NCBI GenBank assembly: GCA_028718565.1
Contig: JAQULO010000001.1
Span: 27,736 to 91,735, forward strand
Direction: 5' to 3'
DNA from: Syntrophales bacterium
GTDB taxonomy: Bacteria > Desulfobacterota > Syntrophia > Syntrophales > UBA2210
Length of the DNA stretch: 64,000 nt
Shown one piece after another: positions 8,033 to 54,640 of the stretch (the stretch's first letter is position 1; each line of letters opens with the position of its first letter). The notes under the pieces were generated by a model, which was given only the letters and a program-made list of their open reading frames with translations, had not been told where the DNA came from and ran no database searches. The position numbers were made by a program, and so were the translations under genes.

Positions 8033-8109
8033 TGGTCGGGATGGCGCGATTTGAACGCGCGACTCCTGCGTCCCGAACGCAGTGCCCTACCAGGCTGGGC
8101 CACATCCCG
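8033..8109 (-). tRNA. tRNA-Pro (anticodon CGG), CCA encoded
   Basis: The reverse complement reads CGGGATGTGGCCCAGCCTGGTAGGGCACTGCGTTCGGGACGCAGGAGTCGCGCGTTCAAATCGCGCCATCCCGACCA. It folds as a cloverleaf with a 7-bp acceptor stem, anticodon loop TTCGGGA and T-loop GGTTCAAAT. Confidence 0.92.
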
Positions 8110-8263: not shown

Positions 8264-8680
8264 GTGATAATTTATGATCTTAAGTGTGAGAAGAAACACA
8301 CCTTTGAAGGATGGTTTAACGACAGGGAAGCCTTTGAAGCGCAGAAAAAGAAAAAACTCGTCACATGCCCTGTATGCGGCAGCTCAGACATAGGTATAGT
8401 TCCTTCCTCCATCACGATCATGGGGAGGGAAACAGAGGGACTGAAGAATACAAGCAGCAAGGAAATCTCCCCCATGAAGGCGCTCAAGTTGTTCCATGAA
8501 TACATGGATAAGACATTTGAAGACGTGGGGAGCAGATTTGCCGAAGTTGCTCTGCGGATACATGCCGGCGAGGAAGACGTCCGGAGCATCAAGGGTACTA
8601 CGACAGAAAGGGAAGAGGCCACACTCACGGAAGAGGGCGTTCCCTTCGTAAAGATCCCCATACCGAAATTCGACAGTTGA
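8264..8680 (+). CDS. DUF1178-like zinc-ribbon protein
   Basis: 138 aa with N-terminus MIIYDLKCEKKHTFEGWF....CPVCGS, characteristic of the DUF1178 family. GTG start. Confidence 0.6.
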   Translation: MIIYDLKCEKKHTFEGWFNDREAFEAQKKKKLVTCPVCGSSDIGIVPSSITIMGRETEGLKNTSSKEISPMKALKLFHEYMDKTFEDVGSRFAEVALRIHAGEEDVRSIKGTTTEREEATLTEEGVPFVKIPIPKFDS

Positions 8681-8696: not shown

Positions 8697-11006
8697 ATGG
8701 AAAAACGCTACAATAATGTTCTGGACCTGATAGGGAATACTCCTATTGTAGAGATCCGCCGTCTTAATCCCAATAAAAAAGTTACGGTCTATGCAAAGCT
8801 GGAGGGGGTCAACCCCGGCGGATCGATCAAGGACAGGACAGCGCTATACATGATAGAAAGGGCCGAGGAGAGGGGCGCCCTCACCCCGGAGAAGACCATT
8901 CTGGAAGCCACCAGTGGCAACACCGGCATAGGCCTTGCCCTCGTTGCGGCAGTCAAAGGATATCCCCTTACGCTGACCATGCCTGAATCGGCGAGCGAGG
9001 AGAGAAAGAAGATATTAAAGGCCATGGGTGCCCACATGCGGCTTACACCGGCCGAGTTCGGGACAGATGGTGCGATAGAGGTGGCGTACGAGATGCTGCG
9101 CGAGGAGCCGGAGAAGTACTTCGCCACCGATCAGTTCAATACCGAAGACAACGTAATGGCCCACTACCACGGCACGGCGGAGGAGATCTGGCAGCAGACG
9201 GACCGAAAGGTCACCATGGTGGTAGCAACCCTGGGGACGTCCGGGACCGTCATGGGGATCTCCAGGAGACTTAAGGAATACAACAAAGATATCAGGATAA
9301 TAGGCGTAGAGCCCTATCTCCACCACAAGATTCAGGGGCTAAAGAACATGAAAGAATCCTACCGCCCCGGTATCTTTGAAAAAAAGAGGCTTGACGAAAA
9401 AATCAATATCCTGGATGAAGATGCATTCAAGATGGCCAGGGCACTGGCCCGCACCGAAGGGTTATTCGTCGGCATGAGTTCCGGCGCCGCCATGCACGTG
9501 GCCCTCGAGAAGGCACGGGAAATGGAAGAGGGGGTGATTGTGGTCATCTTTCCCGACAGCGGGGAGAGATATCTCAGCACGTCACTCTTTTCGGACCGTG
9601 AAGAAACCTCACTTCGCCTATACAACACGCTCACCCGGGCCAAGGAATCGTTCAAACCGTTAGGCAACTCTCATGTCTTGATGCATTCATGCGGACCGAC
9701 CATGCACGAGGTCCCTCACATCGGAACCTACCGGCGCTTCGTCGTGGCGGACATGATAGCCCGGTACCTGGAATTCAAGGGATACAGCGTCAAGCATGTC
9801 TCGAACATAATAGACCTGGCCGACCGATCCGTGCGTGGCGCCGAAAGGGTCGGCATGAATATCGGTGAGTTCACCCGGGGGCACACCGAGGCATTCTTCG
9901 GCGACCTTAACAAGCTCAATATCAACCATGATGACACCTATCCGGCGGCGAGTGAGAATGTCGATTCGATGATACAGTTGGCGGAGCGGCTCGTGGAGAA
10001 GGGGTATGCTTACGAAAAACTGAGGTCCGTTTATTTCGACATATCGCGGCTTGACGACTACGGGGTCTTATCAAAGATAGACCTGGCAAACGTGCGACAC
10101 TCACAGACGGTAGACCAGGACAATTACGCAAAGGACAGCCCCGTAGACTTCAACCTCCTCAAGCGCTCAACCCTGACGGAGTTGAAGGAGGGAATCTATT
10201 TCAAGACCAAGTGGGGGAACGTGAGGCCGGGCTGGCACCTTGAATGCGCGGCCCTGTCCATGAAATACCTGGGGGAAACCTTCGATATCTACCTGAGCGG
10301 CGCCGATATTATCTTCCCGCACTGCGAGAACGTCATGGCGATAGGAAAGGCCGCTACGGGGAAGAATATTGCAAACTATTGGCTCGCCTCTGAACTCGTC
10401 ATGCTGGACGGCAAGAAGATGTCACGCTCCCTGAACAACTTCTTTTCCGTGGGCGACCTTGAAGAGCGAGGATACACCGGGCGTGAAATCAGGTTTTTTC
10501 TCCTCAGCTCCCATTACCGAAAACCGCTCAGTTTTTCGTTCGGCGCGCTTGACACCGCCGGCAACACGGTAAAGAGACTCAATAACTTCATCCAGAGACT
10601 GCTACGCCTCACCCCGGGAGATGGCTACGCGGAAACCGACCAACTCATCTACGACGTCAGGAAGGGATTCGCCGAAGCGATGGACGACGACTTCAATATA
10701 TCGGGTGCCCTGGCCTCTCTGTTTGAATTTGTAAGAACGGTAAATATCCCTCTGGCGGCGAGCCGGCTTGATGCCAGGCAGAGAGACCTGGTTCTTGATA
10801 CCATGAATCGTATCAACTCCGTACTGCGCATTATGGATTTCGAGGAGAAAACACTCAGTGAAGATGCCACGCGGCTCATGGAGGAAAGAAGGCAGGCCAG
10901 GTCTGTTGGCAACTGGAAAGAATCCGACCGCCTGCGCCAGGAGCTTGCAACGTTGGGGGTTCTTGTTCATGACACTGAGAAGAATACTACGTGGACCCTG
11001 CAATAA
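8697..11006 (+). CDS. Fusion protein: cysteine synthase (CysK/CysM, PLP-dependent) + cysteinyl-tRNA synthetase-like domain
   Basis: One uninterrupted 769-codon ORF. Residues 1-300 carry GGSIKDR (PLP Lys), TSGNTG, GTSGT and SSGAA. Residues 306-769 are colinear with CysRS (LRLYNTLTR..., SCGPT, HIGT, WHLEC, FPHCEN, KMSRS, DDDFN, C-terminal tail). Confidence 0.9.
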   Translation: MEKRYNNVLDLIGNTPIVEIRRLNPNKKVTVYAKLEGVNPGGSIKDRTALYMIERAEERGALTPEKTILEATSGNTGIGLALVAAVKGYPLTLTMPESASEERKKILKAMGAHMRLTPAEFGTDGAIEVAYEMLREEPEKYFATDQFNTEDNVMAHYHGTAEEIWQQTDRKVTMVVATLGTSGTVMGISRRLKEYNKDIRIIGVEPYLHHKIQGLKNMKESYRPGIFEKKRLDEKINILDEDAFKMARALARTEGLFVGMSSGAAMHVALEKAREMEEGVIVVIFPDSGERYLSTSLFSDREETSLRLYNTLTRAKESFKPLGNSHVLMHSCGPTMHEVPHIGTYRRFVVADMIARYLEFKGYSVKHVSNIIDLADRSVRGAERVGMNIGEFTRGHTEAFFGDLNKLNINHDDTYPAASENVDSMIQLAERLVEKGYAYEKLRSVYFDISRLDDYGVLSKIDLANVRHSQTVDQDNYAKDSPVDFNLLKRSTLTELKEGIYFKTKWGNVRPGWHLECAALSMKYLGETFDIYLSGADIIFPHCENVMAIGKAATGKNIANYWLASELVMLDGKKMSRSLNNFFSVGDLEERGYTGREIRFFLLSSHYRKPLSFSFGALDTAGNTVKRLNNFIQRLLRLTPGDGYAETDQLIYDVRKGFAEAMDDDFNISGALASLFEFVRTVNIPLAASRLDARQRDLVLDTMNRINSVLRIMDFEEKTLSEDATRLMEERRQARSVGNWKESDRLRQELATLGVLVHDTEKNTTWTLQ

Positions 11007-11569: not shown

Positions 11570-12403
11570 TTATTCGTATCCCTCTTCATCGGCAAGAATG
11601 TCGAGATGCAGCGTCGCTATATCCTCCACGTCCAGGTTCGGCGCCTTCTCCGCTTTTCTGAAGTCGACCGCCTTTATGTACTTATTGCAGACGTTGCACA
11701 CATCGACCCGGTACTTCTCCTCTTCCTCGATGGTGAAGTAGGCGAGAGTCTGTTGGTCTTCATTCCCGCAGAAGGGGCAGCGAATTCGTTTGAACTGCCA
11801 ATCAAATCCGCACTGACTGCAGAAGAGAAATCTCTTTCCCCCCTCTCCTCTGAGCTCCGAGATCTTCGGTTCTCTGCCGCATATGGGGCAGTACCCCTCA
11901 GACCACTTCGACCCGGCAATAGTGTCTCCGTACTTTTCAGAGAGGACCTCCAGCGCCGGCCGCAGGCTCTCTTCGACAAGGAAACCAAGCAGATCAAAGA
12001 CCCCTTCTTCACTCTCATCCTCTGCATCTTCATCCTGCTGTAGGATGAAGGACTCGCGGACCATCTCCCGGTAGTCCAGCTCCCCGGAATTGATCTTCCG
12101 TATTATTTCACCGGTTTCTTCCAGGTCCCGCTTCTGAGCTATCTCGAGGAGGGAGATAAAGTACTCCTTCGGTTCTTCAAGCTCAAAGGTGCCCTCGGGG
12201 AAATCGACGAGGGGCAACCCCCCGGTAAGTTTTTTTTCTATAAGCGATTCATCTATGTTAAAGATATCACCCTGAGCCTTGCGGCGGTACGTTTCTCTCA
12301 GGATAAGGACCTCTTCAAGGATATCGAGCAGTTCTTCATAATGGGGGTTCATATGTTTGTACCCGTCAATTGTCTTCAGGGTGTCTCTCAGTACTTGCGC
12401 CAT
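11570..12403 (-). CDS. fdhE: Formate dehydrogenase accessory protein FdhE
   Basis: 277 aa with paired CxxC motifs (CPICG, CSQCG, CPFCG, CNVCNKY) in FdhE spacing. It is the last gene of the fdn operon. Confidence 0.85.
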   Translation of the reverse strand: MAQVLRDTLKTIDGYKHMNPHYEELLDILEEVLILRETYRRKAQGDIFNIDESLIEKKLTGGLPLVDFPEGTFELEEPKEYFISLLEIAQKRDLEETGEIIRKINSGELDYREMVRESFILQQDEDAEDESEEGVFDLLGFLVEESLRPALEVLSEKYGDTIAGSKWSEGYCPICGREPKISELRGEGGKRFLFCSQCGFDWQFKRIRCPFCGNEDQQTLAYFTIEEEEKYRVDVCNVCNKYIKAVDFRKAEKAPNLDVEDIATLHLDILADEEGYE

Positions 12404-12565
12404 GCTTCACCTCATATGGGGTTTTAAAACGAAGCCCCCCTATATATGCTTTATCCCACAAATTCAAGAAATTATTGCCCCAGCAAAAAGGGGCCCGTTC
12501 TCGATGGAACAGGCCCCTCATGATCAACAGATCTTCACTCCTGCATGCAGGCGCAGATCAAATTG

Positions 12566-13204
12566 CTACTTTGAAACCTCCAGCTTTCCAGCTTCTTCCA
12601 TCTCTTTTAACCATTTCGGACACTGTTTCTCCGCCCAGGGTCGTGTGACCCATCCCGTCAGGATAGCTGACACAGAACCGGGGACACCAACGGTTCCCAG
12701 ATACAAATGGATAAAGAAGAAGGGGAAGATGACCAAGAACCCGAGGGCGTGCAGGGGGTACATCCACCGTACCAGTTCCACCGGAAGACCCAGCGGGAAC
12801 CACATGACCAGCCCGGTGATAATCATAACGATCCCGAAACCTGCCACCGCCCAGAAGAATGCCTTCTGGCCGGGGTTGTATTTCCCCGTCTCGGGAACCT
12901 TGTCCACATGCCACAGGTAACCACCTGCCACCATAATCCACTCCAGATCCTGGGGAAACTCGAATATGCCGGCCTCCTTCCACCATATCAATATGGCGAA
13001 GGCAAGTGACGGGATAAAGACAAGCCCGGAAAAGTTGTGGATCAGTTTCAGCGTTTTCAATCCTCCGACAGGAACCGCAAGAAAATTGAACGAATGGAAC
13101 ATCATTCCCAGCCCCGAAACCATAAGGATCAGGCAGGAAATGGCCATGCACCAGTGCACTATTCTCTCAAACCCATCGGATGCTTTTATCATTCCTTTTT
13201 TCAT
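12566..13204 (-). CDS. fdnI: Formate dehydrogenase gamma subunit (cytochrome b)
   Basis: 212 aa with four predicted TM helices and conserved His residues. It lies immediately downstream of fdnH. Confidence 0.85.
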   Translation of the reverse strand: MKKGMIKASDGFERIVHWCMAISCLILMVSGLGMMFHSFNFLAVPVGGLKTLKLIHNFSGLVFIPSLAFAILIWWKEAGIFEFPQDLEWIMVAGGYLWHVDKVPETGKYNPGQKAFFWAVAGFGIVMIITGLVMWFPLGLPVELVRWMYPLHALGFLVIFPFFFIHLYLGTVGVPGSVSAILTGWVTRPWAEKQCPKWLKEMEEAGKLEVSK

Positions 13205-13205
13205 T

Positions 13206-14000
13206 TTATTCGCCTCCTTCCTTGCTTACCTGATCCCCATCGCCGCTGGTGTCCTTGGGACCGTGTGTGATGTAGTGTAAGAAGGATCCCGCTATAACAC
13301 CGCCGGCGGCAAGCAGGCTGAGCGGCTTGAGCCAGTCTTTCCAAGCAACAACAGAGAGGGGCACTCTCGGTTTCTCCGGAAGCTTGTCATAGATGGCAGC
13401 CTTCCTCGGAAGAACGTATACCATGTGCGTTCCATCCACAAAGGTGTCTCCGTAGACGGAGGCGTCGCCGCCCAGTTCCTTCGCCCTCGCATATGCCACT
13501 TTCAGCATCTCATCCTTATCGCCGAAGCGCAGGGCGTCGGTCGGACAGGCCTTGACACAGGCCGGTTCCATCGCGTTGTCGATCCTCGAATAACACATAT
13601 CGCACTTGAGGACCTTGTCGGTCTCAGCATCATATTTAGGCACTTCAAAGGGACATGCAAAGACGCATTCCTTGCACCCGATGCACTTACTGCCGTCAAG
13701 AGCGACGGTACCGTACTCGGTATGGGAAAGCGCACCACTCGGACAGACCTTCACACAGGCTGCATCGGTGCAGTGCATGCATGCATCATGTCTGAACAGC
13801 CAGTCAACCCCGCTATCATCAGATATTTCTTGAAATCTTATAATATTCCAGGTGTTCGGCTGAAGATCAGGCGGGTTCTGATAAGTCCCCGTGTTGACAG
13901 TCTGCCGGGCAGGCAACTGGTTCCACTGCTTGCACGCCAACTGGCATCCCCTGCAACCGGTACACTTGGAAAGATCACACAGTTTGATTTTCTCAGACAT
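13206..14000 (-). CDS. fdnH: Formate dehydrogenase beta subunit (4x[4Fe-4S])
   Basis: Ferredoxin-type cluster motifs CTGCRGCQLACK, CMHCTDAACVKVCP, CIGCKECVFACP and CDMC...CVKACP, plus a C-terminal TM anchor. Confidence 0.9.
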   Translation of the reverse strand: MSEKIKLCDLSKCTGCRGCQLACKQWNQLPARQTVNTGTYQNPPDLQPNTWNIIRFQEISDDSGVDWLFRHDACMHCTDAACVKVCPSGALSHTEYGTVALDGSKCIGCKECVFACPFEVPKYDAETDKVLKCDMCYSRIDNAMEPACVKACPTDALRFGDKDEMLKVAYARAKELGGDASVYGDTFVDGTHMVYVLPRKAAIYDKLPEKPRVPLSVVAWKDWLKPLSLLAAGGVIAGSFLHYITHGPKDTSGDGDQVSKEGGE

Positions 14001-14003: not shown

Positions 14004-17000
14004 TTACACCTCCTTCCTTTCGACATTTACCATGAAGGCCTTGCTCTCCGGAATCATGGTATTGGCGTCTCCGATAAACGGAGTTACTATGTTGGCGGAA
14101 TCACCAAAGGTAAAGACTTCCGGCTTCTTATCACCATGCACGTATTCCCTCATCTTTGTGGTAATCCAGCCGTAGTGCCATGGAATACCGACCTCATGAA
14201 CCGTATTGCCGTCGATATTGAAGGGTTTCCATCTGTCTGTCACGATCGCCACGGCATCGACCTGTCCCCTGACTGATTTCACGGTTACTATCTCGCCGTT
14301 TTTGATCCCCTTATTCTTGGCAAGCTCAATGCCCATCTCCACGAACATGGAGGGCTGCATCTCCGCGAGCCAGGGACACCACCTCGTCATAAGGCCGGTC
14401 TGCCAGTGCTCGCTCACCCGATACGTTGAACAGACGATCGGGAACCGCGGATCGCAGGTTGCCCTCGCATCCACATCCGTCCCCGTTCCCTCTTTATCCC
14501 ATCTCTTGATTGTAGGATTGACGAACTGCGGTGACATGAGGTTGCTCTCAACGGGGCATTCCAGGGGTTCATAGTGCTCCGGGAAGGGACCGTCCACCAG
14601 CCCGGGACCAAAGATCGAACCGACTCCATCGGGCTTCATAATAAAGGGGGGCCTTCCAGCGCCCGGTGCGGCGACGCCATCCGGCACATCGCCGACCCAC
14701 GAGGAACCATTCCACACAATAACGGGATGCTCTTTGTCCCAGGGCCTCCCTGTCTCCGGATCAACGGAGGCGCCGTTGTAGATGATTCTCCGGTTAACCG
14801 GCCAGCTCCACGACCATTCGGGATACAGACCAATGCCGGATTCATCTTTTTTGCTCCGGCGGGCCGCCATATTTCCCTTCTCGGTATAGGAATTACAGTA
14901 GAGCCAGTTGCCCGAAGAGGTAGACCCGTCACCCTGGAGAAAGGCGAAACTGGGAACCAAAGTACCCTTCTTGTACAGCGTGCCGTTGATCTCCTTATCT
15001 TCAAGGAAGTAGCCGTTGATCTCCTTGGCGATATAATGGGCATCCAGGTGCCGGACCTTGCCGTCAATATCCTTGGGTCCATAATCCCAAGTCATCTGTG
15101 TGATGGCCTCTTTCAGCGGGCCGCCTTCCTCTTCGTACAGCTCCTTGATTCTGTAGAAGAGCTCCGAGATTATCTCACCGTCAGGCATGGCCTCCCCGGG
15201 AGAATCGACCGCCTTGTACCGCCACTGCATCCAGCGACTGCTGTTGGTGATACTGCCCTCCTTTTCAATTGAAGCGGAGCAGGGAAGCATGAAGACCTCC
15301 GTCTTTATCTTCTTCGGATCCATATCCGGCCCCTTCCAGAAGGAGCCAGTCTCGTTGTCGAAGATATTGACATTCACCATCCAGTCCAGCTTGCCCATGG
15401 CCTGCCGGGTCTTGTTGGAACTGGCACCGCTGCACGCGGGGTTCTGCCCCCACGCGAAGAAGCCGGTGAAATTTTCTTTGTACATCGCGTCGAAGAGGCT
15501 TAGCCACGAGTAGTTCTTCCCGTCATCCAGCTTTGGCAAGTATGTATAGGAATCTTCCAGAGAAACACCCGTTCCGTAGTGGGCCCTCAGAAGGCTTGCC
15601 ACATACTTGGGGTAGTTATTCCACCAGTTCAGGCTGTTGGGTTCAACGGTTGTGGGGGTATTCTTGGCGTCATACTCGGCCAGGGTCGGCAGGGACGCCA
15701 CAGGGGTTTTCAGGTACCCAGGCAGGATATGGAAAAGGAGACATTGGTCGGTGGAGCCCTGTACGTTGGACTCGCCCCTGAGGGCATTGACCCCGCCGCC
15801 GGCCACACCCATATTCCCCAAGAGGAGCTGAATGATAGACATCGTTCTGATATTCTGAACGCCGACTGTATGCTGGGTCCATCCCATGGCATACATGATC
15901 GTCCCCGCTTTTCCTGTAGCACCGGTCTTTGCATACTCCTCATAAACCTCAAGGAGTTTCTCCTTCGGCGTACCGGCAATCCTGGAGACGATATCCAGAT
16001 TGTATCGGGAATAATGTCTCTTCAAGAGTTGATACACGCAGTTGGGATCCTTGAGGCTCATATCCTTCTTGGCGACACCGGCCGAATCGGTCTGGAAGGA
16101 CCACGAGGACTTATCGTACTTGGCGTCCTTGAGACCGGAGAATACGCCATCATTATCTCCGGGGAGTTTGAAGTCGGCATTGACCAGGAACGGGGCGTTG
16201 GTATAGTACTTGACATATTTTTCCTGGATCAGGTTGTTCTCCAGAATATAGTTGATCATACCGCCCAGGAAGGCTATGTCGCTTCCCGATCTCAGGGAGG
16301 CATAGATGTCAGCTTTAGAAGAGGTCTGCGTGAATCGGGGATCCACGCTGATCAGCTTCGCGCCGTTTTCCTTGGCCTTGGTTACATACTTGAATGAGAT
16401 AGGGTGATTGGAAGCCGCGTTACTTCCCATGATTAACACACAATCACTGTACTGGATATCGATCCAGTGATTGGTCATTGCACCGCGTCCGAACGACTCT
16501 GCCAGAGCCGCAACAGTGGCGGAGTGTCAGATACGGGCCTGATGTTCAATATAGACCAGGCCCAACCCCCTCAAGAATTTTTGATAAATGAAGCACTCTT
16601 CGTTGTCCATGGCGGCGCTGCCGACGGAAGCTATACCCTCCGTCCTGTTCACCACCTGGCCCTTTTCGTTCTTAAGGGTAAAACTTGCGTCTCTGCTTTT
16701 CTTGACGTTCTTGGCGATCTTATCGATCATCCACTCCCAGGATTTCTCTTCCCACTTGTCGGAGTAAGGCGCCCGGTAGAGCGGTTTGTCAAGACGATTT
16801 TTGTTGACCGAAAGCTGATAGATGGATCCGCCCTTACTACAGAGTGATCCTTGGTTCACAGGATGATCCGGATCCCCCTCTGTGTTGATAACCTTCCCGT
16901 CTCGAGCGGATACGATTATTCCGCACCCAACGGCACAGTAAGGGCAGACCGTGGTGGTCTCTTTTGCATACTTGATCTTTAACGGCTGCGCGTGAGCTGC

Positions 17001-17084
17001 CACCGGCTTCAGATTGATACCGATCCCGCTCGCCATCAGCGCAGTTCCAGAAATCTTCAAGAAGCCTCTTCTGCTGATATCCAT
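14004..17084 (-). CDS. fdnG: Formate dehydrogenase alpha subunit, selenocysteine-containing, Tat-exported
   Basis: ORFs 16527-17123 and 14004-16478 share a frame and are joined by TGA at 16529-16527, reading ...IEHQARI-U-HSATVAALAESFGRGAMTNHW, the FdnG Sec context. Twin-arginine signal MDISRRGFLK and CPYCAVGCG are present. AAGGAG lies 8 nt upstream of ATG 17084. Confidence 0.93.
16494..16510 (-). promoter_or_regulatory. Candidate bacterial SECIS hairpin for fdnG
   Basis: The mRNA reads CGGCUCU-GGC-AGAGUCG, a 7-bp stem (one G-U pair) with a GGC apical loop. The stem begins 16 nt after the UGA and the loop lies about 24 nt after it. Confidence 0.5.
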
Positions 17085-17633
17085 AACATGCACTCCTTTC
17101 TGAAAGTTTTGATACCCAAGCACTCACTTCTTCTCTCCTTTCCAAGCACGGGAGGCACAGCCGTTTCCAGCCATACCCATTGTCCGCTCTTCATGGAAAA
17201 TTCTTCGTTAGAAGAGACGGATTCGGAGCACATTATCTCTACATCATCTTCAATTATCCCCTTGGGTTACTAATGAATTGGAAACCAATTGAAAGCTACA
17301 ATAAAGAGCTGAATCAACGGTCGGGCTATATAGACTATGAGGTGTTTTGTCAAGATCTTTTAGAAATTTCAGCAGTGATTTCTATATATTATGCCATAAT
17401 TGACATAAGCTTTGGCAAGTTCACCCGCCCTCCGATAGTAGGGCCGGAGAGTCGCCACAAAACACAAATTTCACTTTTGAATATCCGGAATATCTAGAAC
17501 AGCTATCCTGTTGACATGTTGTCGCCGTATGTGCTCCTATGTGCTCTATAGAAAGAGCTTTATAACCCTAATTTCACAGGGTCAACGGGATTTTAATTTT
17601 TTTGATGGCGGCTGAGTGGGATGCCTTTTTTTC

Positions 17634-17797: not shown

Positions 17798-18973
17798 ATG
17801 GGTAGGAAATCTAAATACGAAAACACTATAAGCAAGCAATACGGTGAGTTGATGGCTTACTGCAAGGGCCATATGGAACAGATGGATAAGACGTTACCGG
17901 AACCGGTTGAAGATTTCCAGACGCTTTTGCAAGAGCGTGGCATCAGTAGAAGAAGTTTTATCAAGTGGACATCGTTGATGACTACAGCGTTGATGCTGCC
18001 ACCCATCTTCCGTCCCATGGTCGCCAAAGCAGCAGAAAATTTTAGTCGTCTTCCCGTCGTCTGGCTTCATTTCGCTGAATGCACGGGTTGCAGCGAAGCC
18101 TTATTGCGTTCTTCTTATCCCAATGTGGACGACATTCTCCTGGACACTATTTCTTTGGAATACCATGAAACACTGATGGCAGCCGCCGGTTATCAGGCCG
18201 AACAGAATCTGGAAAAGGCAATCAACGATTTTAACGGCAAGTTTATCTGTGTCATTGAAGGCGCCCTGCCTCAGGGGCTGGATGGAAAATACCTGACCCT
18301 TGGCCCCAAGGGAAAAACAGGCGTTGAAGTGGCCAAGGAAGTAACATCCAAGGCAGCAGCGGTCATTTGCATTGGTAGTTGTTCTTCTTTCGGCAACGTT
18401 CAAGCCGCCAAACCAAACCCAACGGATTCAGCTGGAATTGGGGATGTATTGGGAATTACAACTGTTAACATCGCCGGTTGCCCGCCTAACTCTGCCAACT
18501 TCACGGGAACCTTGCTCCATTTTCTGATGTTCGGCGCGTTGCCGCCCCTGGATTCTCTGGGAAGGCCTACATGGGCTTACGGCAAGCGAATCCACGACTT
18601 CTGTGAAAGACGGCCCCACTATGACGCAGGAGAGTACGTGGAAGAATGGGGTGACGGCGGCGCAATGAAAAGCTGGTGTTTATATAAAGTCGGCTGCAAA
18701 GGGCCGTATACGTTTGCAAACTGTAGCAAGGTCCGATTCAATGACGGTGTCTCATGGCCGGTTATGGGCGGTCATGGGTGTATGGGGTGCACCGAACCCG
18801 GATTCTGGGATACCATGGCCCCTCTTGAAAAACCCATTGCAGATACGACCATCGGTGGCGGTGAAAAGACGGTTGACAAGATTGGCGCCGTTTTAACAGC
18901 CGTTACCGTCGCAGGCGTTGCCGCTCACGCGGGTCTGAGCGCCATCAAGCACAGGGGACAAAACAAAGAATAA
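17798..18973 (+). CDS. hyaA: [NiFe] hydrogenase small subunit, Tat signal
   Basis: Twin-arginine motif SRRSFIKW, Fe-S cysteines (ECTGCSE, GSCSSFG, GCPPN, CxxC...) and a C-terminal TM anchor. The true start may be an internal Met (MEQMDK...). Confidence 0.93.
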   Translation: MGRKSKYENTISKQYGELMAYCKGHMEQMDKTLPEPVEDFQTLLQERGISRRSFIKWTSLMTTALMLPPIFRPMVAKAAENFSRLPVVWLHFAECTGCSEALLRSSYPNVDDILLDTISLEYHETLMAAAGYQAEQNLEKAINDFNGKFICVIEGALPQGLDGKYLTLGPKGKTGVEVAKEVTSKAAAVICIGSCSSFGNVQAAKPNPTDSAGIGDVLGITTVNIAGCPPNSANFTGTLLHFLMFGALPPLDSLGRPTWAYGKRIHDFCERRPHYDAGEYVEEWGDGGAMKSWCLYKVGCKGPYTFANCSKVRFNDGVSWPVMGGHGCMGCTEPGFWDTMAPLEKPIADTTIGGGEKTVDKIGAVLTAVTVAGVAAHAGLSAIKHRGQNKE

Positions 18974-19017
18974 GCTCCTCATAGCAACAAGAAGACAATC
19001 TTCCCAGGAGGAATAGC

Positions 19018-20688
19018 ATGTCACAAAGAATCATCATAGATCCAATCACACGAATTGAAGGACACTTGAGAATAGAGGTCGAGGTTGAGAATAATATCAT
19101 TAGAGACGCATGGGCAAGCATCACCCTGTGGCGTGGCATAGAAACTATTTTGAAGGGAAGGGATCCGAGGGACGCGGGGCTCATGGTTCAGCGTTTCTGC
19201 GGTGTTTGCACCTATTCCCATTACGAGTCAAGCATTCTGGCCTGTGAAGATGCCTTCGGGGTAAAACCGCCACCCAACGCGAGAATCGTCCGTAATTTGA
19301 TTAACGGCGCCCAGTTCCTGACCGACCATGTCATGCATTTTTATCATCTTCACGGCCTGGACTGGGTAGACATTGTCAGCGCCCTTTCCGCGAATCCTAA
19401 AAAAGCCGTTGAAATGGCAAAAGGTTATCATTCTAATCCATATAACTGTTCTGAAACACACTATAAAGCCGTTCAAGACAGGCTGACAAAATTTGTAAAA
19501 TCCGGCCGACTCGGCCCGTTCTCCAATGCTTACTGGGGCAACCCATCTTTCAAACTTCCCCCTGAAGCCAACCTGATCATCGTGTCCCACTACCTGGACG
19601 CCCTTCAGGTCTCCAAGGTCGGCGCCCAGATGATGGCCATCTTCGGCGGGAAAAACCCCCATCCGCAAACGCTTGTTGTCGGCGGCATTACTTCCGTCGC
19701 GGATGCGCTTGATGTACATCGCATAGGGGAATATCTCTTCCGACTGAAAGAACTCAAGAATTTCGTCGAAACGGCATACATACCGGATGTACTCATTGCG
19801 GCGACCCATTACAAGGATGAAGGCGCAGACGGTGTCGGTGCCGGGGTGAAGAACTATCTTGCCTACGGTGGCTTCCCCCTGGATGATAATTGGAATAAAC
19901 TGTTATTCCCCAGAGGCAGGGTCGTGGATGGCGATATCGCCAATCCCCTTGAGATGGACGAGAGGAAAATCACGGAAGAGGTCTTCCATTCCTGGTACAA
20001 AGACGGCGAGGGCCTCCATCCCTTTGACGGCAAAACGGATCCCGACTACACCGGTTACGACGAAAACTCACATGTGAGAGGAGATGAAAAATACTCCTGG
20101 TGCAAAACCCCGCAATACGACGGACAGCCTTACGAAGTCGGCCCATTGGCGCGTTTTATTGTCGCTTACGCCCAGGGCCACACAGAAATCAAAAATCTGG
20201 TGGATACTACACTGAAAGCGGCGGGCCTGCCCGTTACCGTTTTGTTCTCCACCCTGGGACGAACGGCCGCACGCGCGCTGGAAACAAAGTACATAGGAGA
20301 CCACATCGAGGAATGGGTCAACGAACTGGTGACAAACATTAAAGGGGGCGATACCAGAACGTGGACACGATGTGATGTCCCCGAGAAAGGTCAGGGCCGT
20401 GGCATGGTCGAAGTTCCAAGGGGCGCATTGGGACACTGGGTCAAAATCGAAAACAGGGTTATTTCCAATTACCAGGCCGTCGTGCCCTCGACGTGGAACT
20501 GCGCACCGAGAAACAAGTCCGGCGTAAAGGGCCCCTATGAACAGGCCCTGATCGGCACCAGACTGGCCAATGTTGATCAACCCCTTGAAATCCTGAGAAC
20601 GATTCATTCCTTTGATCCATGTATGGCCTGTGCGGTTCACATCATAGATCCAAAGACCAATGAAGTGAGGGAATTTAAGGTAGCCTAA
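19018..20688 (+). CDS. hyaB: [NiFe] hydrogenase large subunit
   Basis: N-terminal RIEGHLRIE and RFCGVCTYSH. The C-terminal DPCMACAVH is followed by a 15-aa extension (IIDPKTNEVREFKVA) of the kind removed by the maturation protease. Confidence 0.95.
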   Translation: MSQRIIIDPITRIEGHLRIEVEVENNIIRDAWASITLWRGIETILKGRDPRDAGLMVQRFCGVCTYSHYESSILACEDAFGVKPPPNARIVRNLINGAQFLTDHVMHFYHLHGLDWVDIVSALSANPKKAVEMAKGYHSNPYNCSETHYKAVQDRLTKFVKSGRLGPFSNAYWGNPSFKLPPEANLIIVSHYLDALQVSKVGAQMMAIFGGKNPHPQTLVVGGITSVADALDVHRIGEYLFRLKELKNFVETAYIPDVLIAATHYKDEGADGVGAGVKNYLAYGGFPLDDNWNKLLFPRGRVVDGDIANPLEMDERKITEEVFHSWYKDGEGLHPFDGKTDPDYTGYDENSHVRGDEKYSWCKTPQYDGQPYEVGPLARFIVAYAQGHTEIKNLVDTTLKAAGLPVTVLFSTLGRTAARALETKYIGDHIEEWVNELVTNIKGGDTRTWTRCDVPEKGQGRGMVEVPRGALGHWVKIENRVISNYQAVVPSTWNCAPRNKSGVKGPYEQALIGTRLANVDQPLEILRTIHSFDPCMACAVHIIDPKTNEVREFKVA

Positions 20689-20704
20689 AGTCAATAAGGA
20701 GGTC

Positions 20705-21379
20705 ATGGTGGAAACAATAGTACCAAAAAAAGAATGGTCCGTGGCCATAAGGCTCAATCACTGGAGCACGGTGGTTGCCATATTTATACTGATTGCGACG
20801 GGTTTTTATATTGCGGCCCCCTTTACCGTCAACGCAGGAGAAACGGTAAATAAGTTTTTGATGGGGGATGTACGCTTCTGGCACATCTTCTTCGGTGTCT
20901 TGCTGGTATTCGCCTTTCTCTGGAGGGTGTACCTGGCGTTCTTCTCCCGATTCCATGCGGATTGGAAAGACTTTTTCGCGTGGACAGACAAGAAGAATTT
21001 CATCAAACAGATCAAATTTTACTTGCTTATCTCAAAGGAACGGCCCGACCATAATTATCTCTATGGGCCGCTGCAGTCATTGGCATACGCAGGGCTGCTC
21101 TTCCTGCTGTTCTTGATTGTTTTGACGGGACTTATTCTGCTTGGAGCGGGTTATCACGCGGGATGGACCAGTTTGGTCTATACACTGGTCAAGCCTTTTG
21201 AAAACCTGATGGGTGGCTTGGCCGTGGTCAGATGGATTCACCATATCCTGACCTGGTGTTTCATCCTGTTTATCGTGGTGCATGTTTACATGGCATTCTG
21301 GTACGATGCCGTCTTGCAGGAGGGCACCATATCGTCAATGATCAGCGGCAAGGTTTTCAGAAAAAACCACAGCAAATAG
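20705..21379 (+). CDS. hyaC: Ni/Fe-hydrogenase b-type cytochrome subunit
   Basis: 224 aa with four TM helices and a RLNHW-type N-terminus. Third gene of the structural operon. Confidence 0.88.
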   Translation: MVETIVPKKEWSVAIRLNHWSTVVAIFILIATGFYIAAPFTVNAGETVNKFLMGDVRFWHIFFGVLLVFAFLWRVYLAFFSRFHADWKDFFAWTDKKNFIKQIKFYLLISKERPDHNYLYGPLQSLAYAGLLFLLFLIVLTGLILLGAGYHAGWTSLVYTLVKPFENLMGGLAVVRWIHHILTWCFILFIVVHVYMAFWYDAVLQEGTISSMISGKVFRKNHSK

Positions 21380-21416
21380 TTAAGCGTGTGACCTCCATTT
21401 TGATAGATATAAAGAA

Positions 21417-21446
21417 AAAGGGGAGATAGTTTGTCTCCCCTTTTTT
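21417..21446 (+). terminator. Rho-independent terminator after hyaC
   Basis: GGGGAGA-tagtttg-TCTCCCC hairpin followed by TTTTTT. Confidence 0.8.
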
Positions 21447-21458
21447 AAACGCAAGGTT

Positions 21459-21959
21459 ATGAAAAAAAAGAATTTTATAACCGTATTAGGACTGGGGAAT
21501 ATCCTTCTTTCCGACGAAGGGTTCGGCGTGCACTTTATCCGGTGGTTTTCAGAGAGATACCGTCTGCCGGATGACGTTGAGATGATTGACGGGGGAACTC
21601 TTGGTTATGCCCTGCTTGACCAGATAGGTGACTGCCAACACCTGATCGTACTAGATGCCATCAAGATGCAAGATACGCCCGGCTCCCTGTACCGCTTCAC
21701 ACGGGAAGCCCTTGAACTTCACATGCCCCCGCCCACTTCGGCACATGAGGTCGTGTTTCTGGATGTGATCTGTAAAGCGGAACTTATTGAACAGGCACCG
21801 GATGATGTGATTTTTCTGTGCATCGTCCCCGAAGCGTATGGCGATCTTTGTTTGGAGATGACCGTGACGTCAAAAGAAAAGTTCCCCAATATGGAAACAC
21901 TGTTACTGAAAGAATTATCGATTCACGGAATCGTGCCGGAGAGGACCATTCATGCATGA
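21459..21959 (+). CDS. hyaD: Hydrogenase maturation endopeptidase
   Basis: N-terminal VLGLGNILLSDEGFGVH and an internal DGG motif typical of HyaD/HybD/HupD. Confidence 0.9.
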   Translation: MKKKNFITVLGLGNILLSDEGFGVHFIRWFSERYRLPDDVEMIDGGTLGYALLDQIGDCQHLIVLDAIKMQDTPGSLYRFTREALELHMPPPTSAHEVVFLDVICKAELIEQAPDDVIFLCIVPEAYGDLCLEMTVTSKEKFPNMETLLLKELSIHGIVPERTIHA

Positions 21960-22296
21960 GCTATCCTTGACCCGGTCTATCCTGGATATCATTGAAGACT
22001 ACGCTCGAAGGCATCACTTCAAGAAGGTAAATTCCGTAAAACTTTCTTTCGGCAGGATATCCTCCATTGAGCCTAAATCACTGGAATTTGCCTTTACAAT
22101 ACAATCTAAAGACACGAAAGCTCAAGGTGCACGCCTTGAATTTGATATTTTGCCTGTTGTCATATATTGCATGTCCTGCGGAAAAGACATGGAGGTGGAT
22201 GCTTACACCGCAACATGTCCCGAGTGCCGGGGAGAAGACGTGCTCTTGGCCGGAGGCACTCAGGAACTAAAACTCGTTGAACTGGATGTTGATTAA
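21952..22296 (+). CDS. hypA: Hydrogenase nickel insertion protein HypA
   Basis: MHELSL N-terminus and the zinc site CMSCG...CPECRG. Confidence 0.92.
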   Translation: MHELSLTRSILDIIEDYARRHHFKKVNSVKLSFGRISSIEPKSLEFAFTIQSKDTKAQGARLEFDILPVVIYCMSCGKDMEVDAYTATCPECRGEDVLLAGGTQELKLVELDVD

Positions 22297-22313
22297 AAAA
22301 GAGGTAGCTTTCT

Positions 22314-22544
22314 ATGTGTATCGGGTTCCCCGGTAAAATCGTTTCGATTGACCAGGATAATTACGCCATCATTGATATCAGTGGCACCAGACGGGAGGTA
22401 TGTCTCGATCTGATTGACGAGGATGTGACTATCGGAGATTACGTTATATCCCATGCCGGTTACGCCATACACAGGATCGATGAAGAACTGGCTAAAGACA
22501 AACTCGATCTATTGAGAGAGTTGATTGAAAATGAAATATATTGA
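22314..22544 (+). CDS. hypC: Hydrogenase assembly chaperone HypC/HupF
   Basis: 76 aa beginning MCIGFPGKI, with the essential Cys2. Confidence 0.92.
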   Translation: MCIGFPGKIVSIDQDNYAIIDISGTRREVCLDLIDEDVTIGDYVISHAGYAIHRIDEELAKDKLDLLRELIENEIY

Positions 22545-23619
22545 CGAATATCGAGACCCAGCTTTAGCAAAAGGCCTGCTTGATAAAATTGCAGGGCTGT
22601 CGAAAAAAATTGGACAACCGGTAACTATAATGGAGTTTTGCGGCAGCCATACCTACGCCATCGGTCGCTTCGGAATTCGGAACATGCTACCAGGAAATAT
22701 TAACCTGATTTCCGGCCCCGGTTGTCCTGTCTGCGTAACCTCAATTCACGATGTAGACGTGGCGCTGCATCTGGCATCACAAAAAAACGTTATTTTCGCC
22801 ACTTTCGGTGATATGTTGAGGGTTCCCGGCTCGCACGGAAACAGCTTGCAGAATACCCGTGCCTCCGGCGCGGATGTTCGGGTAGTCGCCTCGGCAGCAA
22901 ATTGCATCTCTCTGGCAGAGACCAACAAAGATAAAGAAGTTATTTTTATGGGAATTGGTTTTGAGACGACCTCTCCCACAATCGCTTCAACAATTCTGAC
23001 CTGTCATAAAAAAAGGATTCCCAACTTCTCCGTTTTTCCCGTGAACAAAGTCATCCCCCCCGTCGTCATTGCCCTTATCGATGATCCGGCGCTCAACATT
23101 GATGCTTTCCTCTGCCCGGGACACGTGAGCACTATCATCGGAACGAACGCATATGAGCCCATAACTCAGGCAGGCCGGGCCGCCGTCATCACGGGTTTTG
23201 AACCAGTGGATATCCTGGAAGGCATCTTCATGGTCCTGGCCCAGATTACGAAAAACAGAAAAACCGTCGCCATTCAGTACAGCCGCGGGGTAAAACCGGA
23301 AGGAAACCCACGGGCCAGGGAAGTCATGACGTCAGTGTTTTACCGGGGCTCCTCGGAATGGAGGGGACTTGGCACCATTCCGGAAAGTGGTCTTCTCCTT
23401 AAAGAATCCTATAAAGCATTTGATGCACTGAATAAATTCGAAGTGCCCGAAATACGTTCCATAGAGATTAAAGGTTGCTGCTGCGGTGATATCCTACGGG
23501 GGATAAAGACTCCAAACGAGTGTCCTCTGTTCAAACGCGTCTGCAACCCTTTGAACCCTGATGGCCCCTGTATGGTTTCCTCGGAAGGTACATGCGCGAC
23601 CTACTATAAATATCATTAA
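22525..23619 (+). CDS. hypD: Hydrogenase formation protein HypD
   Basis: Motifs GPGCPVCVT, GFETTSPT, CPGHVS and a C-terminal Cys cluster. Confidence 0.93.
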   Translation: MKMKYIDEYRDPALAKGLLDKIAGLSKKIGQPVTIMEFCGSHTYAIGRFGIRNMLPGNINLISGPGCPVCVTSIHDVDVALHLASQKNVIFATFGDMLRVPGSHGNSLQNTRASGADVRVVASAANCISLAETNKDKEVIFMGIGFETTSPTIASTILTCHKKRIPNFSVFPVNKVIPPVVIALIDDPALNIDAFLCPGHVSTIIGTNAYEPITQAGRAAVITGFEPVDILEGIFMVLAQITKNRKTVAIQYSRGVKPEGNPRAREVMTSVFYRGSSEWRGLGTIPESGLLLKESYKAFDALNKFEVPEIRSIEIKGCCCGDILRGIKTPNECPLFKRVCNPLNPDGPCMVSSEGTCATYYKYH

Positions 23620-23654
23620 CCGCAATTTGATATTGTTCGTGGAAGGAGCAGAAA

Positions 23655-24320
23655 ATGAAGATCAGTGTCGTAAAAAATGTGTTGGACGCAAACGACCGGA
23701 TTGCTATGGACAATCGGACGTTATTCGATACAAACAAGACCTATGTCATCAACCTCATGAGCTCTCCGGGCGCGGGAAAGACAACGCTTGTGGAAAAAAC
23801 AATCGAGGCACTTAAGGACAAGTACGTCATATCTGTTATCGAAGGAGATATTCAAGATACGTGCGATGCCGACAGGGTCGCCAAACTGGGTATTCCCGTG
23901 GTGCAGATCAACACGGGCGGCGCCTGTCATATCGACGGGAACATGGTCCGTGAGGCTTTGCCCGCCTTCAATCTCGAGAAGACTGACCTGTTGGTAGTGG
24001 AAAATGTCGGAAATCTCGTCTGTCCTGCTGAATTCAAGGTCGGCGAAAACGTCAAAGTCATGATTTTAAGTACCCCCGAAGGCGCCGATAAACCTGCAAA
24101 ATACCCCCTGATGTTTCAGGAATCTTCGGTCATGATTATCAACAAGATGGATCTTATCCCCTACGTCGATTTCGATATGAAACGGGCCAAGAGGGACGCG
24201 CTGGTAAGCAATAAGGACCTGAAAATATTTGAGGTATCATGTAAGACATCTTCGGGGCTATCAGATTGGTTCCAGTGGCTCGAGGATCAAATAGAATCTT
24301 TTAGGAAGTCAAGCCCGTGA
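23655..24320 (+). CDS. hypB: Hydrogenase nickel incorporation GTPase HypB
   Basis: P-loop SSPGAGKTTL, plus ENVGNLVCP and NKMDL. Confidence 0.93.
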   Translation: MKISVVKNVLDANDRIAMDNRTLFDTNKTYVINLMSSPGAGKTTLVEKTIEALKDKYVISVIEGDIQDTCDADRVAKLGIPVVQINTGGACHIDGNMVREALPAFNLEKTDLLVVENVGNLVCPAEFKVGENVKVMILSTPEGADKPAKYPLMFQESSVMIINKMDLIPYVDFDMKRAKRDALVSNKDLKIFEVSCKTSSGLSDWFQWLEDQIESFRKSSP

Positions 24321-26623: not shown

Positions 26624-26643
26624 AAAATAGGAAGGTTGCTCAA

Positions 26644-27654
26644 ATGAAAGATGACATCATCCTGCTTGGCCACGGCGGCGGTGGATTGCTGAGCCATGAG
26701 CTGGTTACCCGGAAGTTCCTCCCTCTTTTCAGGAATAGCTACCTGGAGCGCATGGAGGACGGGGCCGTCCTTGAAATTGATGGGACAAAGCTTTGTTTTT
26801 CCACGGATTCCTATGTGGTCAACCCCATCTTTTTTCCGGGTGGAGATATCGGGTCTCTTGCCGTCCACGGTACGGTCAACGATCTGTCCATGTGTGGGGG
26901 CACGCCTTTGTTCTTGAGCGCGGGCTTTATCATTGAAGAAGGCTTTCCCATGGAACAACTTGAAAAAATTATCGCATCCATGGCGCAGGCAGCCGGAAGT
27001 GCACACATCCAAATCGTCACAGGGGATACCAAGGTTGTGGCCCGGGGGGCAGCAGACGACCTTTACATAAACACCACCGGCATCGGTGTCATCCGCTACG
27101 AGGGTACGATTTCCGTCAGCAGCATCGCTCCCGGTGATGTTATCATCCTAAATGGCACCATCGGCGATCACGGGGCCGCCATCCTAAGCAAAAGAGAAAA
27201 TCTCGGATTCAATACGGAGCTTCTTTCCGATTCAGCCCCTCTCAATGGGCTCGTGGAAAAGATTCTGAAGGCAAGTCCTAATATCCACTGCATGCGTGAC
27301 GCCACTCGTGGGGGGCTCGGCGCGATTATGGCCGAAATTGCCGATCAGTCAAGATGTCAAATCATTCTCGAAGAAAAAGAGATCCCCGTGAAAGACATCG
27401 TCAAGGGGATCTGCGAAATCCTGGGGTTTGATCCCATCTTTTTAGCTAATGAGGGGAAAATGGTCGTATTTTGTTCCCAGGCGGATGCCCAAAAAGTTTT
27501 GAAAACCATGAAGGCCCACCCATATGGCACAGGTGCTGCGATAATAGGGCGGGTTGGGGAAAAGAACACCGGACGTCTCATTTTAAACACGCTTATCGGG
27601 GGCTCCAGGGTAATAGATTTGCCGCCGGGGGAACTGGTTCCTCGTATTTGCTGA
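26644..27654 (+). CDS. hypE: Hydrogenase expression/formation protein HypE
   Basis: AIR-synthase-like fold with the diagnostic C-terminal ...PRIC. Confidence 0.93.
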   Translation: MKDDIILLGHGGGGLLSHELVTRKFLPLFRNSYLERMEDGAVLEIDGTKLCFSTDSYVVNPIFFPGGDIGSLAVHGTVNDLSMCGGTPLFLSAGFIIEEGFPMEQLEKIIASMAQAAGSAHIQIVTGDTKVVARGAADDLYINTTGIGVIRYEGTISVSSIAPGDVIILNGTIGDHGAAILSKRENLGFNTELLSDSAPLNGLVEKILKASPNIHCMRDATRGGLGAIMAEIADQSRCQIILEEKEIPVKDIVKGICEILGFDPIFLANEGKMVVFCSQADAQKVLKTMKAHPYGTGAAIIGRVGEKNTGRLILNTLIGGSRVIDLPPGELVPRIC

Positions 27655-47041: not shown

Positions 47042-47050
47042 ATGTGCGTC

Positions 47051-51728: not shown

Positions 51729-54640
<2,912 letters not shown>

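Follow-up and report, generated by a model that had tools for sequence, protein, structure and literature searches.

In the Syntrophales, a cysteine synthase and a cysteinyl-tRNA synthetase (CysRS) are joined in a single polypeptide. This CysM-CysRS fusion, encoded in a 64-kb window (the whole stretch of DNA that was analysed), is genuine and conserved across the order, and it appears to be unstudied. At a probability of roughly 50%, we favour a bifunctional enzyme that would link the making of cysteine to the charging of tRNA-Cys, the metal site of its synthetase half having been remodelled. The architecture, its conservation in Syntrophales, the motif states, the split and fused relatives and the separate clade are observed; both enzymatic activities, their coupling or channelling and any role as the sole CysRS are inferred.

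The fusion gene lies on the forward strand (8697..11006) and is the single uninterrupted open reading frame that the original prediction described, with 769 codons, an ATG start and no internal stop. The public entry for the 769-residue protein is MDD5722137.1, and the ortholog in S. aciditrophicus is Q2LQ77 (WP_011416196.1). A CysM-type PLP cysteine synthase (residues 1-300; 8697..9596, forward strand) is followed by a 5-residue linker, REETS (9597..9611, forward strand), which joins the CysM C-terminus to residue 2 of a full-length class I CysRS. A frameshift or stop at the junction (9590-9615), named in advance as an observation that would count against the fusion, was not seen, and the linker contains neither a stop nor an internal start codon. 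Pfam confirmed the suspected combination of PALP and tRNA-synt_1e, both at full length, with PALP at residues 9-287 (1e-73), tRNA-synt_1e at 319-621 (3e-81), DALR_2 at 658-710 (6e-10) and CysS_C at 720-766 (2.7e-10). All of the motifs quoted in the original prediction are present: GGSIKDR, TSGNTG, GTSGT, SSGAA, HIGT, NIIDLADR, SGADIIFPHCENV, KMSRS and DDDFN.

The 120 best database matches include 116 proteins of the same architecture and length (66-100% identity, many independent contigs), among them the one encoded in the complete genome of S. aciditrophicus. The notion that a sequencing or assembly artefact merged two separate genes is already refuted, since the fusion recurs with the same length and linker on independent contigs and in this finished genome, which excludes a frameshift or chimera. 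Purifying selection on both halves is strong, with 219 positions conserved in at least 99% of the 116 full-length relatives. Among PDB chains, none covers both halves. An AF2 model of the full protein reached a pLDDT of 73.6; the CP domain and the active-site loops are modelled at low confidence, pLDDT falls below 50 at residues 293-303, and the pTM of 0.56 makes the model too uncertain to orient the two active sites.

The synthase half carries every PLP fold-type II catalytic motif of E. coli CysM (2BHS) and M. tuberculosis CysM (3DKI). The PLP lysine is K45 (codon 8829-8831, within GGSIKDR), and this lysine, the TSGNTG Asn loop, the GTSGT phosphate loop and SSGAA are invariant in the Syntrophales family. 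The closest solved structure is E. coli CysM (2bhs, 1.4e-76), and the residue opposite Arg210 of that enzyme is K216, likewise basic. The fusion differs from the two CysM enzymes in its clade-typical loop, IQGLKNMKESY, and in its 465-residue C-terminal CysRS module. The half scored 364.7 with the cysKM model TIGR01136, above the cut-off of 344.15, but only 370 bits with the CysM equivalog TIGR01138, below the cut-off of 394.2; it is therefore CysM-like, yet not classifiable as a CysM ortholog. Retention of the carboxylate-binding TSGNTG loop indicates a free amino-acid substrate, and tRNA-dependent cysteine synthesis by this half was rejected on that ground.

The CysRS half consists of a catalytic module (Rossmann plus CP; residues 306-625, 9612..10571) and the helical DALR and C-terminal anticodon-binding domains (DALR_2 and CysS_C; residues 626-769, 10572..11003), all on the forward strand. 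Residues 306-767 are colinear with residues 2-459 of E. coli CysRS (1li5, 1.1e-79), bearing out the predicted colinearity from the first residues to the C-terminal tail, and the catalytic Rossmann, DALR and anticodon-binding domains expected of a class I CysRS are all present. Compared with E. coli CysS (1LI5/1U0B; TIGR00435), the half is full-length and about 36% identical in conserved columns, and it shares the Rossmann/CP/DALR/anticodon order, Cys28, Trp205, Cys209, His234 and Asp229, and the HIGx and KMSxS signatures. It differs in the N-terminal CysM, in Thr68 to Ile, His235 to Cys, Glu238 to Val, Lys269 to Arg and GG to SG, and in belonging to a separate clade. With TIGR00435, the window protein scored 380.9 bits, above the cut-off of 340 and below the canonical 456-517, on a scale where a relative with dead ATP motifs (P0124) also passes with 367.

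The elements expected for ATP and anticodon binding are in place. HIGT occupies residues 341-344 (9717-9728) and KMSRS residues 574-578 (10416-10430), and H341, G343, D537 and the K574-M-S-R-S stretch are each conserved in at least 99% of the 116 members. Among the zinc and thiol elements, C332 (E. coli C28; 9690-9692) is kept in 97%, W513 (W205) in 98%, and C517 (C209; 10233-10247 together with W513) and H542 (H234) in 100%. In the anticodon-binding domain, R731, R735, W740, D744, R747 and D759 are as in canonical CysRS.

Set against this conservation are four anomalies, I372 (9810-9812), C543, V546 and R577, at the E. coli positions T68, H235, E238 and K269; C543 and V546 lie with H542 in FPHCENV (residues 540-546, 10314-10334). 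Cys28, Cys209, His234 and Glu238, which we take to be the protein zinc ligands of E. coli CysRS, and Thr68, which presumably contacts the substrate amino group, are positions whose invariance was computed here. T68, E238 and K269 are invariant among about 55 canonical CysRS representatives, and H235 has one exception. The fusion retains C332, C517 and H542 with the Glu and the Thr replaced, and the new states are those of the family: V546 is Val in 93% of the 116 members, I372 Ile in 92%, C543 Cys in 99% and R577 Arg in 100%. The exchange of Glu for Val at the presumed zinc ligand with a new neighbouring Cys, pointed out in the original prediction, is thus real and fixed in the family; the change of Thr68 to Ile was absent from its motif list. 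Its broader statement that the class I signatures are altered stands for FPHCENV and KMSRS, but not for HIGT. The fourth position, with codon ACC at 9726-9728 in the window, is T, S or N in the family, and it is Asn (HIGN) in most canonical representatives, so that HIGT is an ordinary HIGH-type sequence for CysRS. KMSRS is present as stated; all 116 members carry Arg where all canonical representatives carry Lys, but the motif marks the whole clade rather than the window family alone. K269R need not abolish charging, since the E. coli K269A mutant reportedly kept its protein-synthesis function (PMC5660078).

These replacements bear on a serious rival, which we consider possible though on balance doubtful, namely that an ordinary cysS is also present and the fused module is a repurposed paralog, an ATP-dependent ligase whose rebuilt pocket accommodates another thiol substrate or uses a different metal centre. 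The synthase would then feed the module directly, and the candidates include cysteine persulfide, some other compound made by the fused CysM and a Cys3His site. The changes T68I, H235C, E238V and K269R fall at near-invariant canonical positions and the new residues are fixed, a pattern suggestive of selection for a new state. The retained thiol-binding core (C28, C209, H234 and W205) and anticodon-binding domain speak against a paralog, as do the genomic surroundings described below.

In neighbour-joining trees, the CysRS half sits in a distinct clade (bootstrap 88-90%). Most of the examined clade members are CysM fusions; in one case, a stand-alone CysM gene immediately precedes the CysRS gene. 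Adjacent cysM-cysS genes occur in L006, with a 2-bp gap, and in L015, whose CysRS motifs are fully canonical, and a Nanoarchaeota MAG (P0128) carries an independent CysM-CysRS fusion with canonical motifs. Most plausibly, the fusion is derived from such a neighbouring cysM-cysS gene pair. The separate clade, with several losses of aminoacylation motifs, and the low TIGR00435 score (381) also favour a paralog, as a clade with these losses appears dispensable for charging; the repeated loss of HIGH and KMSKS suggests that at least some members coexist with another Cys-tRNA route. As a separate observation, the NCBI cysS model gives every one of these proteins the name 'cysteine--tRNA ligase', among them at least one that has neither HIGH nor KMSKS; we take this model to be a GTDB bac120 marker, in which case the proteins may affect marker-based analyses.

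In Desulfobacterales and Desulfobulbales, the ATP motifs of the fused relatives are lost, but the cysteine/zinc pocket and the anticodon domain are kept, next to an intact CysM half. These proteins lend some credit to the idea that the CysRS-like module is a non-catalytic sensor, binding cysteine and/or tRNA-Cys and controlling the synthase to which it is fused. Such a sensor would resemble HisZ, a HisRS paralog without catalytic activity through which HisG is regulated in histidine biosynthesis. In both systems, a synthetase-derived module is physically coupled to an enzyme making its own amino acid, and the HisZ logic fits the ATP-dead relatives. The window protein, by contrast, keeps its ATP motifs, is covalently fused, and has as its partner the last step of the pathway rather than the first. 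Its family is the reverse of these relatives, with HIG, D537 and KMSRS in at least 99% of the 116 members and a changed cysteine pocket, the opposite of what a sensor predicts. The combination of lost ATP motifs and retained amino-acid binding that marks a pseudo-synthetase is seen only in the Desulfobacterales and Desulfobulbales proteins, and a sensor is accordingly unlikely for the window family. Since sister lineages lack the ATP motifs but 0 of the 116 Syntrophales members have lost them, selection on catalysis can be argued in Syntrophales.

Two other cysteine chemistries had been suggested for the module, and neither fared well. A CysRS-type persulfide synthase would use PLP on the KIIK and KMSKS lysines, as reported for the E. 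coli and mammalian CARS enzymes, and both the Cys-SSH production reported for CysRS enzymes (PMC5660078) and the sulfide-rich habitat of the organism are in its favour. However, the mechanism requires Lys73, Lys76, Lys266 and Lys269 as PLP sites (PMC5660078), and at these positions the window protein reads R377, R380, K574 and R577. Position 73 is Arg in 91% of the family, 76 is variable and 269 is Arg in 100%; as Arg at positions 73 and 269 is incapable of forming a Schiff base, we rejected the CARS mechanism and regard a persulfide synthase of this type as very improbable. An MshC-like cysteine ligation is likewise disfavoured. MshC, the Cys:GlcN-Ins ligase, is a CysRS-derived ATP-dependent cysteine ligase whose zinc site, too, is not known to include a Glu ligand, but it is not known to carry an anticodon-binding domain. 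The window protein retains that domain, has no mycothiol context and scored 181 bits with TIGR03447 (cut-off 485.1), so MshC identity was rejected.

The genomic surroundings are of a housekeeping kind, with a conserved yicC-gmk-rpoZ-pyrF-...-fusion synteny, and in S. aciditrophicus the fusion gene lies near the rplK/rpoB cluster. Partner genes of a special pathway are absent, which again disfavours a paralog. A conserved third partner, for example a sulfur carrier, cysE or SepRS, was sought in the examined neighbourhoods and none was found; only a DUF1178 zinc-ribbon gene (8264..8680, forward strand), 16 bp upstream of the fusion gene, recurs, and only in Syntrophales. It adjoins the fusion in S. 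aciditrophicus too; the two are not neighbours in the clade's other lineages, which makes a functional partnership improbable. Within the same 64-kb window are serC and serA, suppliers of O-phosphoserine.

A second cysS, which the paralog reading calls for, was not seen within 64 kb of the window genome or 22 kb of S. aciditrophicus, and tblastn of both halves against the 64-kb window matched only the fusion gene itself. With the canonical representative P0143 as seed, a protein search yielded Aminicenantes and Acidobacteria sequences alone and no second cysS from Syntrophales; with the L015 CysRS as seed, the matches came from DPANN and Patescibacteria. A contig search had no Syntrophales locus among the matches listed, and the proteomics supplements contained nothing relevant. 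Literature searches on the fusion, Syntrophus CysRS and the protein accessions found no functional description, in agreement with the original prediction.

Coupled synthesis and charging has evidence on both sides. In the favoured mechanism, the N-terminal CysM-type half would make L-cysteine from O-phospho- or O-acetylserine and a sulfur donor, and the C-terminal module would activate the cysteine with ATP and pass it to tRNA-Cys. The fusion would place cysteine synthesis beside tRNA charging, and we propose that new cysteine is thereby used without a free pool accumulating; channelling of new cysteine onto tRNA-Cys, judged from sequence, is compatible with the evidence. The determinants of ATP and anticodon binding are retained in this module, and the metal/cysteine pocket is a rebuilt one, with three of the four zinc ligands left (Cys, Cys and His), Glu replaced by Val, a new Cys beside the His, and Thr replaced by Ile. 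The conserved fusion, the invariant CysM motifs, the retained ATP, zinc/thiol and anticodon elements, the recurrent cysM-cysS linkage (L006, L015 and P0128), the housekeeping synteny and the presence of serC and serA all count for coupled charging. Against it count the changes at T68, H235, E238 and K269, since a sole housekeeping enzyme would be expected to keep its Cys/Ser-discriminating pocket, the repeated loss of HIGH and KMSKS in the clade, and the TIGR00435 score, far below the canonical range and near that of the ATP-dead relative.

A functional parallel is the SepRS-SepCysE-SepCysS transsulfursome of anaerobes, which physically ties the formation of cysteine to that of Cys-tRNA (PMC5424206, PMC8762117). 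There is no homology, as SepRS is a class II synthetase and SepCysS a PLP enzyme of fold type I. The transsulfursome forms its amino acid on the tRNA, in contrast to the free substrate indicated for the fusion by its TSGNTG loop. More speculatively, and only as a tentative proposal, the clade may be an unrecognised cysteine-synthesis/tRNA-Cys system. In Syntrophales it would be the sole route to Cys-tRNA-Cys, with cysteine or persulfide handed from the PLP site to a Cys/Cys/His(+Cys) metal site, and in Desulfobacterales and Desulfobulbales it would be an ATP-dead, HisZ-like sensor of cysteine or tRNA-Cys controlling CysM.

CysRS is a textbook synthetase that attains very high specificity without editing by means of its zinc-thiolate pocket. 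Here, a whole bacterial order has near-invariant positions of that pocket replaced and the synthetase fused to the very enzyme that produces its substrate. If the fusion is the sole CysRS, the pocket is shown to be rebuildable, and the protein would be a natural case in which ordinary class I and PLP components link amino-acid synthesis directly to charging. A hand-over to the rebuilt site, if true, would make the fusion a class I equivalent of the transsulfursome of methanogens, and the ATP-dead relatives hint at a protein that is to cysteine what HisZ is to histidine. If the fused module is instead a paralog, it points to undescribed cysteine or sulfur chemistry in syntrophic anaerobes.

The fusion gene (8697..11006, + strand) is a single ORF of 769 codons that opens with ATG and is free of internal stops, and a scan of its junction found no start codon that would give a separate product. 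Pfam assigned a PLP-dependent PALP domain to residues 9-287 (1e-73), a class I CysRS catalytic domain to residues 319-621 (3e-81), DALR_2 to residues 658-710 and a CysRS anticodon-binding domain to residues 720-766, and the linker between the halves consists of five residues, REETS. In NCBIfam, the CysRS half scored 380.9 bits against TIGR00435 cysS (cut-off 340), and the CysM half scored 364.7 bits against the cysK/M subfamily TIGR01136 (cut-off 344) and stayed under the CysM equivalog cut-off (370 vs 394 bits). Among solved proteins, the CysM half aligned best with E. coli and Salmonella CysM (2bhs, 1.4e-76), and the CysRS half matched residues 2-459 of E. coli CysRS (1li5) end to end (1.1e-79). 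The original prediction of an uninterrupted ORF joining a complete cysteine synthase to a full-length CysRS was borne out by both the domain sets and these alignments. Our search found no solved structure covering both halves, and the AF2 model of the whole protein (pLDDT 73.6, pTM 0.56) recovered both folds, with a mutual orientation of the active sites too uncertain to be read.

The fusion, MDD5722137.1 from a Syntrophales MAG, is conserved. The 120 listed matches from a search of 5.8 billion proteins (66-100% identity) all had the two-part architecture, 116 of them at full length (about 769 aa), and were spread over many independent contigs labelled Syntrophales, Syntrophaceae or Deltaproteobacteria. 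Since the intact fusion recurs on these contigs and in the finished Syntrophus aciditrophicus SB genome (Q2LQ77 / WP_011416196.1 / ABC76162.1), an assembly artefact, such as a frameshift or stop at the junction, is refuted. The order yicC, gmk, rpoZ, pyrF, SpoU methylase, pilC-type, DUF1178 and fusion is common to the window and S. aciditrophicus; in the latter, the next few kb lead into the rpmG-secE-nusG-rplKAJL-rpoB cluster. In the window, tRNA-Pro(CGG) lies at 8033-8109 (- strand), just upstream of the DUF1178-fusion pair. The alignment of the 116 full-length Syntrophales relatives (hereafter the window family) shows strong purifying selection on both halves: column conservation averages 0.83 in CysM and 0.80 in the catalytic part of CysRS, and reaches at least 99% at 219 positions.

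CysRS discriminates cysteine by a zinc-thiolate contact, without editing (PMC7373986). We mapped the motifs onto E. coli CysRS by HMMER alignment, and compared the 116 family members with ~55 canonical CysRS representatives, drawn from 1.84 billion cluster representatives. All of the predicted motifs were found in place, including Thr344 (ACC, 9726-9728), but HIGT is not a divergent signature: the commonest canonical form is HIGN, HIGH is a minority, and the fourth position is T, S or N within the window family. The genuine anomalies are Ile372 (E. coli Thr68 in NxTD; 92% of the window family vs invariant Thr), Cys543 (His235; 99% vs His with one exception), Val546 (Glu238; 93% vs invariant Glu) and Arg577 (Lys269; 100% vs invariant Lys). 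We take Cys28, Cys209, His234 and Glu238 to be the zinc ligands of the E. coli enzyme, and Thr68 presumably contacts the substrate amino group; the alignment itself addressed their invariance. The active site retains Cys332 (Cys28), Trp513 (Trp205), Cys517 (Cys209), His542 (His234), Asp537 (Asp229), His341 and Gly343, and the anticodon domain retains R731, R735, W740, D744, R747 and D759.

In neighbour-joining trees, the CysRS half belongs to a distinct clade (88-90% bootstrap) with the hallmarks HxGxxRR, HxSG and KMSRS. The KMSRS alteration is common to the whole clade rather than peculiar to the window family, which groups with P0121, a 60%-identical fragment, at 100% support. Linkage to CysM holds for most of the clade members that we examined, and no member was seen in a context excluding it. 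Fused members include the proteins P0122, P0286 and P0132/P0271, several N-terminally truncated fragments and, among the loci listed, L009, L011-L014, L017, L026, L042 and L083, hosted by Desulfobacterales, Desulfobulbales and other Thermodesulfobacteriota MAGs; these loci, with P0132/P0271, P0124, P0125 and P0130, include the fusions with lost ATP motifs described below. At L006, the two parts are split into a PALP gene (9108-9998, 296 aa) and the CysRS-like P0133 (10001-11455, 484 aa) with a 2-bp gap. Outside the clade, a cysS of DPANN/CPR (Patescibacteria) type with fully canonical motifs (L015, about 1140-2429) directly follows a separate cysM (about 180-1085), and P0128 from a Nanoarchaeota MAG is an independent CysM-CysRS fusion, also with fully canonical motifs. 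Because linkage occurs both within and outside the clade, cysM-cysS coupling is recurrent, and the simplest account of the window gene is fusion of such an operon. In a Deltaproteobacteria MAG, the fused P0286 is immediately preceded by a gene for a HAD-family hydrolase (L008, 2698-3387; PF12710, a family that we take to include phosphoserine phosphatase). The clade member P0130 (525 aa) has a low-complexity (GNGVP)n insertion within the helical domain, and has lost KMSKS and Trp205.

The Desulfobacterales/Desulfobulbales fusions keep every CysM catalytic motif, the anticodon domain and largely the cysteine/zinc pocket (C28, NxTD, WHxxC, FPHHENE), whereas HIGH has become HLGE, NLSL, QLSE or DISG, Asp229 is Glu, Asn or His in most, and KMSKS is gone. 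Judged by these motifs, they cannot be working synthetases, and their hosts must have another route to Cys-tRNA; we regard them as candidate pseudo-synthetases that may be the cysteine counterpart of HisZ. The window family is the reverse, with the ATP motifs conserved in at least 99% of the 116 members and the cysteine pocket rebuilt. A purely regulatory, HisZ-like role would suit the ATP-dead relatives but not the window family, for which it is improbable. TIGR00435 fails to separate these states: canonical proteins scored 456-517 bits, the window protein 381, S. aciditrophicus 375, P0124 367, P0125 328 and P0271 302 (cut-off 340). P0124 passes despite lacking HIGH and KMSKS, and automatic annotation will name proteins of this sort cysteine--tRNA ligase; if TIGR00435 is, as we assume, a GTDB bac120 marker, marker counts may include them too.

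We give about even odds to the window protein being a bifunctional enzyme, in which the CysM half would make cysteine, the CysRS half would activate it and charge tRNA-Cys, and the fusion would hold both steps together. This reading draws on the intact and invariant ATP, thiol/zinc and anticodon determinants, the housekeeping location of the gene, and ATP motifs that have decayed in none of the 116 Syntrophales members, unlike in the sister lineages. A zinc site with three ligands, taking the substrate thiolate as the fourth, is chemically reasonable, and MshC presumably has such a site. Since E. coli K269A reportedly keeps its protein-synthesis function (PMC5660078), K269R need not disable charging. 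Counting against bifunctionality are the changes at positions that are all but constant in genuine CysRS, the loss of aminoacylation tolerated elsewhere in the clade, and the low HMM score. The rebuilt pocket would be best explained by a repurposed paralog coexisting with a normal cysS, but this rather doubtful alternative requires a second cysS in the genome. Neither a further cysS nor a cysK/M was found in the 64-kb window, the two protein searches that started from canonical CysRS gave matches in other phyla, and no listing of S. aciditrophicus synthetases was found in papers and supplements. Cysteine persulfide formation by the published CARS mechanism, which requires Lys73, 76, 266 and 269 (PMC5660078), is very improbable, as positions 73 and 269 are Arg in the window protein. 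MshC-like ligation, also suggested originally, is excluded by the score (181 against 485) and the retained anticodon domain.

The synthase half is CysM-like rather than CysK-like, and its Lys216 aligns with Arg210 of E. coli CysM, which would allow an anionic substrate, for example O-phosphoserine. The window also encodes serC and serA (50550-53312, + strand), phosphoserine transaminase (566 bits against TIGR01365, but without a Pfam match at 1e-5) and 3-phosphoglycerate dehydrogenase, which together lead to O-phosphoserine, on which the CysM half may act. Synthesis of cysteine on tRNA by this half is unlikely, given the intact carboxylate-binding TSGNTG loop.

Elsewhere in the window, two ORFs (14004-17123, - strand) encode a formate dehydrogenase catalytic subunit with an in-frame TGA at 16527-16529 (context ARI-U-HSATV), probably a selenocysteine codon; after them come genes for FeS, cytochrome b and FdhE proteins (11570-14000). 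Directly upstream of this operon, at 17119-17240 (- strand), is a riboswitch for the molybdenum/tungsten cofactor (RF01055, 65 bits). Genes for NiFe hydrogenase small and large subunits and cytochrome b, and then the maturation genes hypD, hypB-like, hypF and hypE-like, occupy 17798-27654 (+ strand). Class A RNase P RNA (340 bits) and tRNA-Met(CAT) are at 47047-47422 and 48714-48789, both on the - strand.

The fusion architecture is already in public databases, under the name cysteine--tRNA ligase. The original prediction knew of no functional description, and full-text literature searches likewise found none of the CysM-CysRS fusion or its clade. The window fusion is not a categorically new system, as it builds on known kinds: CysRS, CysM, and synthetase fusions and paralogs with amino-acid metabolism. 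It goes beyond an ordinary domain fusion in being conserved across a whole order, in having its pocket rebuilt at positions that are essentially constant in canonical CysRS, and in having mirror-image, ATP-dead relatives.
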